IMG/VR virus record: IMGVR_UViG_2698536387_000007
Source: a virus
Taxonomy: Duplodnaviria; Heunggongvirae; Uroviricota; Caudoviricetes
Reading direction: 5' to 3' (one strand)
DNA length: 6,005 nt
The position numbers and the translations under genes are program-made. Positions 1,462 to 3,654 of this stretch are shown in pieces. The notes beneath the pieces were generated by a model, which had not been told where the DNA came from, searched no databases, and saw only the letters and a list, made by a program, of their open reading frames with translations. The number at the start of each line of letters is the position of its first letter. The first letter of the stretch is position 1.

Positions 1462-1491
1462 CAGAAAAAACAAAACCCGCCGAAGCGGGTT
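1462..1491 (-). terminator. Rho-independent terminator ending the hok transcript
   Basis: On the minus strand: stem AACCCGC, UUCG tetraloop, stem GCGGGUU (1474-1491), followed directly by UUGUUUUUUCU (1473..1462). It sits 30 nt downstream of the hok stop. Confidence 0.8.
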
Positions 1492-1522: not shown

Positions 1523-1657
1523 TCAGCGGTGGCGAGGGATTTCTCCCCCGCCTGGTAATCGTACCTCGCAGAGGTCTTTCCTCGTTACCAGTGCCGTCAC
1601 TATGACGGTTAAACAGATGACGATCAGGGCGATTAACATCGCCTTTTGCTGCTTCAT
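1523..1657 (-). CDS. hok: Hok/Gef-family type I toxin, variant with the conserved C-terminal tail replaced (44 aa; possible deletion derivative or pseudogene)
   Basis: MKQQKAMLIALIVICLTVIVTALVTRKDLCEV matches the Hok/Gef/RelF transmembrane region as I remember it. SD AAGGAGAAG lies upstream of the ATG at 1657. The ORF then reads RLPGGGEIPRHR and stops, instead of the family tail (roughly IRTGQTEVAVFxAYE). The track's longer ORF (start 1714) is an in-frame leader extension, mok-like in position. Confidence 0.8.
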   Translation of the reverse strand: MKQQKAMLIALIVICLTVIVTALVTRKDLCEVRLPGGGEIPRHR

Positions 1658-1670
1658 AACCTGCTTCTCC

Positions 1671-1699
1671 TTGCCTTTCGGCGCGTAAGAGGCTAACCT
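1671..1699 (+). promoter_or_regulatory. Candidate promoter for the Sok-like antisense RNA
   Basis: Plus-strand TTGCCT (1671-1676), 17-nt spacer, TAACCT (1694-1699). This is antisense to the hok leader and start region, at the position where the R1 sok promoter lies as I recall it. The -10 is weak. Confidence 0.35.
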
Positions 1700-1705
1700 A
1701 CGTTT

Positions 1706-1780
1706 GTGAAGCATAGATTGGGCCTCAGATTAATGTTAAGCGTCTTGCAGGACGCGTAATGTTAACTGGGGCTTTTCTCT
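1706..1780 (+). ncRNA. sok: Candidate Sok-like antisense RNA (type I antitoxin)
   Basis: Predicted start about 7 nt after the -10. The region is antisense to the hok leader, including the upstream in-frame ATG (1714..1712) and its SD. A structured segment (outer stem CCUCAG/CUGGGG at 1723-1728/1765-1770, inner stem GCGUC/GACGC at 1740-1744/1751-1755) is followed by the U-rich tail CUUUUCUCU (1771-1780). Boundaries are approximate. Confidence 0.35.
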
Positions 1781-1832
1781 GTCTGCCTTACGGTGGCATG
1801 CCCGAGGCAGACAGCCTCAAGCACCCGCAGCA

Positions 1833-1860
1833 ATTCTACTTAACTCTCGCTTTACAGCAA
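1833..1860 (-). promoter_or_regulatory. Candidate sigma70 promoter for the hok mRNA
   Basis: Minus-strand TTGCTG (1860..1855), 16-nt spacer, TAGAAT (1838..1833). The predicted start near 1826-1829 falls at the beginning of the segment complementary to the 3' fbi element. Confidence 0.45.
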
Positions 1861-1900
1861 ACCGTTTTGCCCGATATGGGAATTCCCATACGGAATGAAT

Positions 1901-2005
1901 TCAGTTCCCCAGGCGCTCCATCAAAAACACAACCAGGCAGTAAACACCCACAACAGCAATAACAGCCAGAGCGCCTTCCATTACCAGTGAAATATCATCC
2001 GACAT
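1901..2005 (-). CDS. Putative 34-aa hydrophobic small protein (MSDDISLVMEGALAVIAVVGVYCLVVFLMERLGN)
   Basis: Below the length cutoff of the ORF track. ATG at 2005..2003 is preceded by a strong SD (AAGGGAGGG, 3-4 nt spacer). It encodes one predicted transmembrane helix and ends at TGA 1903..1901. No homolog recognised. Confidence 0.35.
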   Translation of the reverse strand: MSDDISLVMEGALAVIAVVGVYCLVVFLMERLGN

Positions 2006-2114
2006 ATTCCCTCCCTTGGTGTGAATCCCGGCGAACGTTTTTACCCCCACCGACAAATAACATATACTAGAAAAGCAATAGCTATAGCAACGCCTGCAAA
2101 TGCATCTGGCCGGC

Positions 2115-2678
2115 TCATTGGTTCTCCCCCTGTGTCGCTTCTACTGCGATCTGACTGGCGTATTCGTTAATGGTAACGATAAGTTCTTGCTCGACCTCAT
2201 CCAGACAACTACCGATACCTCGCCTGTCCACTTCAGAAGCATCGAAATCTGCACGAAGCCTGGCGACCTTCAGGATTGCGGACAACACCTCATCAGGGAT
2301 TGCCGGAGAGTTGGTTGACGTTTCCGAGATTATCCGAAAATTATTGGTTGACGAACCCTTATTTTCCCGAAAGTTTCCAGCCTGAAGCATGGCGGCGCGG
2401 TGACACCAGATAATCCAGCCAAGCGCCATATCCCATGCCATGTATTCTCTATCGCCATTTTTTGCTCTGCGGCGATCTACAGATTCCCCGAAACGCTTCT
2501 CCATAAATAATTCATAGGCTGCCCGTTCATCCGATACTGATGCCAGTGATGCCAGTGCAATTTTTAATGCGGTAAGCATGTTGTTTTGATCTTCATCGAG
2601 TCCGAACGGTATTTCATCCCGTGATGACTCAATTCCGGTAATCGTGTTCTGTAGCCATTCTTTGGTTAATTCAGTCAT
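2115..2678 (-). CDS. Hypothetical protein, 187 aa
   Basis: Long minus-strand ORF whose ATG at 2678..2676 sits 9 nt downstream of a stable GNRA hairpin. It is separated from the upstream gene by a 126-bp AT-rich gap. No recognisable motif. Confidence 0.6.
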   Translation of the reverse strand: MTELTKEWLQNTITGIESSRDEIPFGLDEDQNNMLTALKIALASLASVSDERAAYELFMEKRFGESVDRRRAKNGDREYMAWDMALGWIIWCHRAAMLQAGNFRENKGSSTNNFRIISETSTNSPAIPDEVLSAILKVARLRADFDASEVDRRGIGSCLDEVEQELIVTINEYASQIAVEATQGENQ

Positions 2679-3301: not shown

Positions 3302-3654
3302 TTGTTGCCTCCTTTGCGAAGCTCTGCGACTAACTCGTCACATATGTGCGTCAAAGAGCAAAGTTTGATTGCTGGATGTTCGCGCACCATCTCCACACCC
3401 TGCGCCCGCAATTCTGCCAGAAAAGCGTAGGGGTCAGTTTTTTCACTGTGGTACATGGCATCATAGATAATCATTGCAGCGACACCTGCCTGTCCTGCAT
3501 CTGTGACGGATATATGCTCAAGGGCTACGGCCATTGCGTGTTTCAACCTCTCATTTTCCACCTCAAGCACCACACGATTAGCCTCCAGCTCTTCTATGCG
3601 TTTTTTTGCTGCTCCCAGCTCAACACGCAGCTCCTGATAGTTAATCTCGCTCAT
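3298..3654 (-). CDS. Hypothetical protein with an N-terminal coiled coil, 118 aa
   Basis: ATG at 3654..3652 with a strong SD (GGGAGGAAGGAGA). The ATGA overlaps the stop of the 74-aa gene. N-terminal heptad-like ELRVELGAAKKRIEELEANRVVLEVENERLK. Confidence 0.6.
   Translation of the reverse strand: MSEINYQELRVELGAAKKRIEELEANRVVLEVENERLKHAMAVALEHISVTDAGQAGVAAMIIYDAMYHSEKTDPYAFLAELRAQGVEMVREHPAIKLCSLTHICDELVAELRKGGNK

Follow-up and report, generated by a model that had tools for sequence, protein, structure and literature searches.

Type I toxins, the group of Hok/Gef (PF01848), Ibs, Ldr, TisB, ShoB, ZorO and DinQ, are hydrophobic peptides of less than about 60 amino acids (aa) with one transmembrane helix, which come with an antisense RNA gene, whose translation is repressed in normal growth and whose overproduction arrests growth or kills. 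Enterobacteria also make small regulatory inner-membrane proteins such as MgtS, MgrB, AcrZ, PmrR, CydX, KdpF and SgrT; those of the MgtS, AcrZ and MgrB kind have 30-50 aa and one transmembrane helix, are made in normal growth, are under purifying selection and act by binding a larger membrane protein and modulating it. Phages have small membrane proteins for lysis control or superinfection exclusion, among them holins, antiholins, T4 Imm, P22 SieA and HK97 gp15. This study concerns orf34, an open reading frame (ORF) of 34 codons on the minus strand of a 6,005-nucleotide (nt) stretch of viral DNA (Caudoviricetes, IMG/VR record IMGVR_UViG_2698536387_000007), the whole of which is called the window below. 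That orf34 is a real, translated gene seems close to certain. We further read it, with moderate confidence, as an annotated gene for a hydrophobic one-helix peptide which likely sits in the inner membrane, is benign, is expressed in the lysogen and would depend on a partner for its action.

The gene is already in the public record. It is the same gene as ECs_2755 (NP_310782.1) of prophage Sp14 in Escherichia coli strain Sakai, with a 251-nt match, the same position and the same neighbours, and RefSeq carries it as WP_001278460.1, a "hypothetical protein", while the UniRef entry, A0A0K4ZJX7, is uncharacterised. DNA identity is 100% both to Sakai ECs_2755 and to the RefSeq genomes which annotate WP_001278460.1. 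A close 34-aa paralogue, ECs_2271, lies in Sakai prophage Sp12, the variants WP_001278450.1, WP_001278454.1 and WP_072134538.1 are annotated at the equivalent place in other strains, and the identical peptide is found on at least 1000 contigs of the protein collection, where it is labelled "hypothetical protein". orf34 fits this family by whole-peptide identity, by the motif YCL(V/A)V.LM(D/E)RL, and by its position in the nin region, usually directly upstream of a hok promoter. A preliminary description, made from the letters of the window, had called the ORF unannotated, which is wrong for the public record; because ECs_2755 is annotated and is listed in a translatome table of 2017, the finding of an unannotated small ORF there was already known. 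The gene is not mentioned in the text of any paper in the searched literature, nor in the main text of Fozo et al. 2010 (PMC2887945), and the supplements of a transcription-start paper on strain EDL933 hold no matching sequence and no hok entry, so the promoter was not located from there. Three further observations reported below were not found in searchable papers: the three sequence types of the family, the cassette that orf34 forms with a smaller upstream ORF (orf25), and the tight but non-obligatory linkage to the hok promoter.

The preliminary description was right about the ORF itself. Its coordinates and length hold: the minus strand reads from an ATG at 2005-2003 to a TGA at 1903-1901, and the 34 codons between encode MSDDISLVMEGALAVIAVVGVYCLVVFLMERLGN. 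The near-consensus Shine-Dalgarno (SD) site it had reported lies 3 nt before the ATG, and is kept as AAGGAGGG or AAGGGAGGG in all type A loci, the sequence type of the window. The single transmembrane helix it had predicted is borne out by hydropathy, where residues 11-29, 19 in all, form a hydrophobic stretch (mean Kyte-Doolittle value 2.72), and by AlphaFold2, which, given a small family alignment, folds residues 2-33 as one continuous helix with a mean pLDDT (predicted local distance difference test) of 89. The hok locus which it had placed downstream was located with the Rfam sok model and the mok and hok start codons (Table 1). A strong SD core precedes just 4 of the window's 65 ATG ORFs of 20-60 aa; orf25, orf34 and hok are three of these, and they are consecutive, on the same strand and all hydrophobic. 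The product is quite probably a membrane peptide, a location which is a prediction. Neither orf34 nor orf25 has a meaningful match to Pfam, PHROG, NCBIfam or PADLOC models, and their best model matches are at chance level (ATP synthase c, E 0.05; Cmr5, E 0.03). Across the family the C-terminus follows the motif (G/A)(V/I)YCL(V/A)V(F/V/L)LM(D/E)RL(G/S)(N/D).

Ribosome profiling, which the preliminary description had proposed as a check on the ORF, has in fact been published for this gene, and the result is positive. Huecker et al. 2017 (PMC5597208) applied strand-specific RNAseq and RIBOseq to Sakai, and expressed translation as RCV, the footprint RPKM (reads per kilobase per million mapped reads) divided by the RNA RPKM. 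Their cut-offs for a novel translated ORF were an RCV of at least 0.25 and a coverage of at least 0.5, and are not stated for annotated genes. In LB medium ECs2755 had an RNA RPKM of 132.6, a footprint RPKM of 885.0, an RCV of 6.79 and a coverage of 0.95 (S2 Table). The same table gives 167.7, 116.7, 0.76 and 0.99 in BHI medium, and 164.6, 3.8, 0.02 and 0.65 in BHI under cold and osmotic stress. The paralogue ECs2271 in LB had an RNA RPKM of 73, a footprint RPKM of 532, an RCV of 7.20 and a coverage of 0.91. Footprint counts for ECs2755 were 137 in BHI vs 493 in LB (false discovery rate, FDR, 0.002; S6 Table) and fell from 43 to 8 under stress (S6 and S7 Tables), with RNA near constant in both comparisons; such shifts at steady RNA hint at translational control of the peptide. 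The authors also assign to ECs2755 an SD site at a distance of 3 bp (dG -6.4) and a weak BPROM promoter at 249 bp, both upstream, list no terminator and class the gene as "real" (S4 Table), and predict an inner-membrane location with one transmembrane helix (S9 Table). The small genes upstream, ECs2758 and ECs2760, have an RNA RPKM of just 7-9, about 15 times less than that over orf34, and this excess suggests a promoter active in the lysogen. In Sakai lysogens in exponential growth, orf34 ranks with the small genes of higher translation efficiency.

The reading frame also carries the marks of selection on a peptide, which was the other check that the preliminary description had named, and the frame passes it. 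The family was searched with two queries, the 51-aa TTG-extended frame and a degenerate DNA pattern of the conserved C-terminal codons, in which ten codons were fixed. The pattern retrieved 127 family loci from IMG/VR, which fall into two types: type A (MSDDISL..., 34 aa; 71 loci, counting the window and two reference loci) and type B (VLVLKCALAIAAVMAIYCLAVVLMDRLSD, 30 aa, with a GTG start; 57 loci). An exhaustive profile search added a third form, type C (MLAALKGFVAILAVVAIYCLVVVLMDRLSD). Pairwise pN/pS, the ratio of non-synonymous to synonymous differences, was 0.25 in the annotated frame over the 14 distinct ORF sequences of type A and 0.14 over the 16 of type B, and 0.29 and 0.12, respectively, outside the codons that the search pattern fixes. 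The remaining two sense frames gave about 0.8-3.0. Each of the three antisense frames is interrupted by stops in some sequences at least; antisense frame 1 has a low ratio too (0.33 and 0.19), yet it is stop-closed in every sequence tested. Polymorphic columns are distributed 10/6/18 over the three codon positions in type A and 4/2/14 in type B, and no insertion, deletion or stop was seen within the ORF in 32 and 35 distinct haplotypes, 67 in all. The consensus DNA of types A and B is 67% identical, and the frame, the SD site and an ATG or GTG start are retained in both; in five type A loci the ATG is replaced by GTG, also a start codon. Between types B and C, 11 of 22 aligned codons differ, 8 of them by synonymous and 3 by non-synonymous changes.

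The family is narrow, and is confined to 30-34-aa peptides of Escherichia and Shigella lambdoid prophages. A profile search of 1.84 billion representative proteins returned 12 clusters, all of them close relatives, so distant homology gives no functional lead. When 185,579 species, each represented by one genome, were scanned with the pattern, the family was found only in Shigella flexneri and on a 3-kb contig binned as Collinsella, which we take to be mis-binned; the other 40 matches of that scan are unrelated. Within E. coli it is common: a 251-nt query around the ORF matched at 1,468 places in 674 of 5,426 complete genomes; a genome with a match has a median of two copies, and Sakai has three copies of the region. 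The gene is therefore present in about one in eight complete E. coli genomes, mostly of pathogenic O157-type lineages. The phage records that carry the peptide are only three, Tritos, Evi and mEp460_ev081, all lambdoid and all type B.

Set against the known systems, orf34 resembles type I toxins in form and departs from them in sequence and in translation. It is of their size, it is hydrophobic with one predicted helix, it has a good SD site, it lies in a prophage and it adjoins a true member, hok. However, the 34-aa peptide has no Pfam match at E <= 1, where the neighbouring hok scores 53 bits against HOK_GEF. Hok/Gef loci have an overlapping mok frame, a folded leader and a Sok RNA, whereas the Rfam sok model matches only 1826-1652 and none of it lies over 1901-2005, and the peptide is without the periplasmic Cys-containing tail of Hok. 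An antisense RNA gene for orf34 was not found by promoter scan and Rfam, which a weak promoter could escape. Type I toxins are repressed in normal growth, and orf34 differs, with its RCV of 6.79 and coverage of 0.95 in LB, from reads that may be shared with the paralogues. The small regulatory inner-membrane proteins are a closer likeness in length, single helix, synthesis in normal growth and purifying selection; orf34 differs from them in being prophage-encoded and restricted to Escherichia and Shigella, and it has no homology to them and no match to the NCBIfam small-protein models. By analogy, a mode of action like theirs is the most probable one. With the lysis and exclusion proteins of phages orf34 shares a predicted membrane peptide borne by a phage, but it lies in the nin region upstream of Q, is far shorter, has no PHROG or PADLOC match, and appears to be expressed in the lysogen and not only late. 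The evidence points to no new kind of system.

The relation of orf34 to hok was counted over the loci which have enough flanking sequence. In type A the hok leader follows orf34 in 65 of 66 loci, the hok ATG lying 243-247 nt past the orf34 stop in 61 of them, and three loci have an insertion at the hok SD. In type B hok follows the ORF in 40 of 50 loci, about 211 nt past the stop, and type C has the same arrangement. The ORF without hok was seen in ten type B loci and one type A locus. E. coli genomes match a hok-containing query at 11,187 places vs 1,468 for the ORF region, 96 records of the phage collection match the hok part only, and the homology of hokW in phage 933W ends at window position 1868. 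orf34 is intact where hok is interrupted, absent or, as in the window, truncated, and also where an IS5-like element lies upstream. Types A and B have the identical Hok protein beside them, save for I32L within type A, and the neighbour of type C has five substitutions. A promoter scan reported the equivalent hok promoter, TTGGCG-17-TAGAAT, in phage Tritos. In the window no terminator-like site was found between orf34 and hok. The palindrome TATGGGAATTCCCATA, which stands in this interval in the window, is largely kept in type A (with occasional single-base variants, as in locus L124) and is absent from types B and C; its hairpin has no U-tract, and it could be an operator or a transcript-end hairpin.

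Upstream, the preliminary description had seen an AT-rich gap at 2006-2114 with a candidate promoter in it. The gap has a GC content of 48.6% vs 51.1% for the window and is occupied by orf25, a small hydrophobic ORF. The two 8-bp palindromes that had been noted there do exist (ATAGCTAT at 2078-2085 and GCTATAGC at 2081-2088), but they are sufficiently explained by the orf25 codons GCT ATA GCT ATT GCT (Ala-Ile-Ala-Ile-Ala). The proposed promoter, TTGCTA...TATATG, does not hold up: it fits 8 of 12 positions with a spacer of 17, its last -10 base is G where the scan requires T, and the scan did not report it. We rejected it as weak, within coding sequence of orf25 and of ordinary GC content.

orf25 is probably protein-coding, a call made from sequence comparison. 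It is kept as 25 or 27 aa through an in-frame 6-nt indel, with a constant ATGA overlap and an AGGAGG-type SD, and is without annotation in the RefSeq records examined, while 27-aa variants are annotated in a few records. Its pN/pS is 0.57 vs 0.39 in the +1 frame, which is not frame-specific, and its 3' half is invariant in DNA; for these two reasons orf25 is called probable and not proven. The genes upstream of it vary within type A, with a 187-aa gene in the window and DUF551 genes elsewhere, and loci that differ in these genes are homologous only from the orf25 SD on, about 136 nt before the orf34 ATG. This edge suggests that the mobile unit is orf25 with orf34, usually followed by hok. Types B and C have no orf25. 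The RNA across orf25 and orf34 folds no better than shuffled sequence (z = 0.01).

In the reading that we favour, orf34 would be expressed from the prophage in the lysogenic state, in the manner of a moron. orf25 appears to be translationally coupled to whichever gene lies upstream, and the orf25-orf34 cassette would end 40 nt before the hok promoter. The peptide would insert in the inner membrane, would be non-lethal at its high native level, and, in the usual way of small bacterial membrane proteins, would act on a membrane partner through contact between helices. That it is a benign accessory peptide and not a toxin is rather more probable than the opposite. The partner might be Hok or orf25, small membrane peptides encoded alongside, or else a membrane protein of the host; this is a guess held with low confidence, and any one specific partner is unlikely to be the right one. 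The benefit would be prophage maintenance or exclusion, and the role may also be another accessory one. orf34 would then be an abundant and strongly translated prophage small membrane protein which almost always stands before a hok/sok killer locus. Prophage-encoded small membrane proteins have been little explored as a class, and orf34 is a clean candidate for study, with a possible bearing on prophage stability, phage exclusion or Hok toxicity.

The preliminary description had left the choice between a small membrane toxin, a lysis or exclusion peptide and a chance ORF. Its small membrane peptide has stood, a chance ORF is contradicted by the selection and the footprints, and a toxin or lysis peptide is disfavoured. 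If orf34 were a type I-like membrane toxin, or a lysis or abortive-infection peptide, it would be a second killer beside hok whose synthesis is normally restrained. Its size, hydrophobicity and single helix are like those of Ibs, TisB, ShoB, Ldr and Zor, it is one of three small hydrophobic ORFs in a row, hok being the last, and the medium-dependent footprint counts at constant RNA speak for some post-transcriptional control. Phage Tritos even has a promoter-like TTAACT-18-TAAAAT antisense into the type B ORF, but this site is absent in type A, where no plus-strand promoter-like site into 1901-2005 and no overlapping Rfam RNA was found by a consensus scan that cannot exclude a weak promoter. 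No HOK_GEF, toxin or defence model matches the peptide, and orf34 lies upstream of Q, outside the lysis cassette. The main argument against a toxin or lysis peptide is the high ribosome density, an RCV of 6.8-7.2 with coverage above 0.9, in healthy exponential cultures, since type I toxins are normally untranslated there. We consider a toxin or lysis peptide unlikely. A separate reading would make orf25, orf34 and hok a three-peptide membrane cassette, in which the upstream peptides are so far unrecognised partners of Hok and either restrain it, or the Hok of further hok copies in the cell, in the membrane, for instance as antiholin-like helices, or arm it on phage attack. It seems improbable; if true, it would add protein-level control to the RNA-controlled hok/sok.

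The remaining alternatives take the peptide itself out of the account, or join it to its neighbour. orf34 could be a regulatory upstream ORF, whose translation, directly before the hok promoter, controls read-through transcription or the folding of a 5'-extended hok transcript and whose peptide is irrelevant. The usual linkage to hok in types A and B, with a stop-to-hok ATG distance fixed at about 245 or about 211 nt, the like arrangement in type C and the lack of a terminator between the two genes would fit this. However, amino-acid selection runs along the whole peptide, N-terminal codons included, and the ORF occurs without hok in the eleven loci given above; these two facts make a regulatory upstream ORF distinctly improbable. 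Most hok loci, moreover, do without the ORF, hok has its own promoter, and no unusual RNA folding was found. Alternatively, orf25 and orf34 might be one gene, joined by a programmed -1 frameshift in the run of five G ahead of the orf25 stop codon (TGG GGG TAA) to give a two-helix fusion of about 76 aa. The orf34 frame is indeed the -1 frame of orf25 and is open across the 35-nt spacer (the TTG-extended ORF covers 1901-2056), and the database proteins P0005, P0008 and P0009, each of 74 aa, are such fusions. But the G-run is not conserved, reading GGTGTGGGTAA, GGTGAGGGTAA and GGTGGGAGTAA in 10 loci, and orf34 is equipped with a strong SD and a start codon of its own, both of which types B and C retain in the absence of orf25. 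The fused entries are rare (1-5 member sequences) and show single-base changes in T-runs or G-runs, so that sequencing errors in homopolymers or mutations are their most likely origin. With a G-run that is not conserved and two types that lack orf25, a programmed fusion is very improbable. A chance ORF or a decaying, functionless remnant would explain why the frame is very short, has no protein-family match and has a narrow taxonomic range, and it is just as hard to credit: purifying selection is specific to this frame, none of the 67 haplotypes is disrupted, the SD is conserved, and so is the start, where a change from ATG to GTG still leaves a start codon, and translation is documented (PMC5597208).

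Several points weigh against a benign, partner-dependent membrane peptide expressed in the lysogen. Its membrane location is a prediction, and the N-terminus is acidic in type A and carries Lys in types B and C, so the topology is not assignable. Because the region is present in three copies in Sakai, short reads may be shared, which makes the per-copy values for ECs2755 and ECs2271 uncertain. A consensus scan found no convincing sigma-70 promoter near orf34 and the published BPROM site is weak, which leaves the transcription of orf34 in the lysogen unexplained. As for a partnership with Hok, orf34 and hok are usually linked, yet they are separable and each also occurs alone, and the near-identical Hok beside types A and B offers no co-variation to back it.

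The window comes from an E. coli O157:H7 lambdoid prophage, of which it is the nin region; every gene lies on the minus strand, and the counterpart of the window in Sakai is prophage Sp14. Strain 493/89 and many other O157 genomes are 100% identical to the window save for one deletion in the hok region. Along early transcription the order is replication genes, several small hypothetical genes, the 187-aa gene, orf25, orf34, mok/hok/sok, a 92-aa gene, DUF968, RusA and Q, with gene P ahead of the 187-aa gene, and the same gene order was found in SJ7, CI5, E41, Tritos, Evi and the locus L128. A holin gene lies several kb beyond orf34, which, being upstream of Q, RusA and DUF968, is outside the late lysis cassette. 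The features around orf34 are collected in Table 1.

Table 1. Position of orf34 and of the features next to it in the window, in descending order of position.
Feature	Position	Strand	Remarks
187-aa nin-region gene (ECs_2756)	2115..2678	-	stop codon overlaps orf25 start; PHROG matches only of unknown function
SD-like site of orf25, GGGGGAG (AGGAGG in paralogues)	2124..2130	-	also left edge of the conserved orf25-orf34 cassette
orf25, small hydrophobic ORF, 25 aa, MSRPDAFAGVAIAIAFLVYVICRWG	2041..2118	-	ATG overlaps stop of the 187-aa gene (ATGA)
SD site of orf34, AAGGGAGGG	2009..2017	-	3 nt before ATG
orf34, coding sequence of the 34-aa single-helix peptide, stop included (ECs_2755 / WP_001278460.1)	1901..2005	-	ORF, annotation, pN/pS, published footprints, predicted helix
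Perfect 16-nt palindrome, TATGGGAATTCCCATA	1875..1890		between orf34 stop and hok -35; folds as RNA hairpin
Inferred hok promoter, TTGCTG-16-TAGAAT	1833..1860	-	40 nt downstream of orf34 stop
hok mRNA leader and sok region	1652..1826	-	Rfam RF01794, 114.9 bits, E 2e-26
mok/hok reading frame (mok ATG 1714, hok ATG 1657)	1523..1714	-	3' end truncated in the window
3' end of hok transcript, intrinsic-terminator-like site	1474..1491	-	sole such site downstream of orf34

In the hok region of the window TT at 1557-1558 stands in place of the last 60 nt (positions 6058-6117 of locus L001), which all matching E. coli genomes have. The loss removes Hok from Ile33 onward and alters its C-terminus. The junction was found in none of the 5,426 complete genomes, which leaves two explanations, a rare variant or an artefact in the making of the window. 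In three viral contigs (L032, L053 and L093) the same foreign sequence breaks hok at its SD, about 235 nt past the orf34 stop, and orf34 is intact. A weak Rfam match to isrK at 1470-1551 on the minus strand (27 bits against a gathering score of 50, E 0.007) spans the hok 3' end and the terminator, and is probably the terminator hairpin only.

On the plus strand a promoter-like TTTACC-17-TATACT lies at 2040-2068, in a stretch of orf25 and the spacer that is invariant in type A DNA, even at synonymous sites. Its RNA would be antisense to the orf25 start, and a terminator for that RNA was not found. In strain E41 (L005 1451-2431) the IS5-like element ISKpn26 sits within orf25 at a CTAG/TTAG site, and orf34 is intact there.

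Further upstream, an island of about 105 nt (window about 2296-2391, minus strand; L171 about 3440-3550) is near-identical between ECs_2756, the 187-aa gene, and ECs_2272, a DUF551 gene, which are otherwise not alignable. The island, about 290-385 nt upstream of orf34, was considered as the site of a promoter common to the two Sakai paralogues and was rejected, as it has no convincing promoter. It holds CGTCAACCAA twice, 30 nt apart, and may be a recombination joint or a shared linker.

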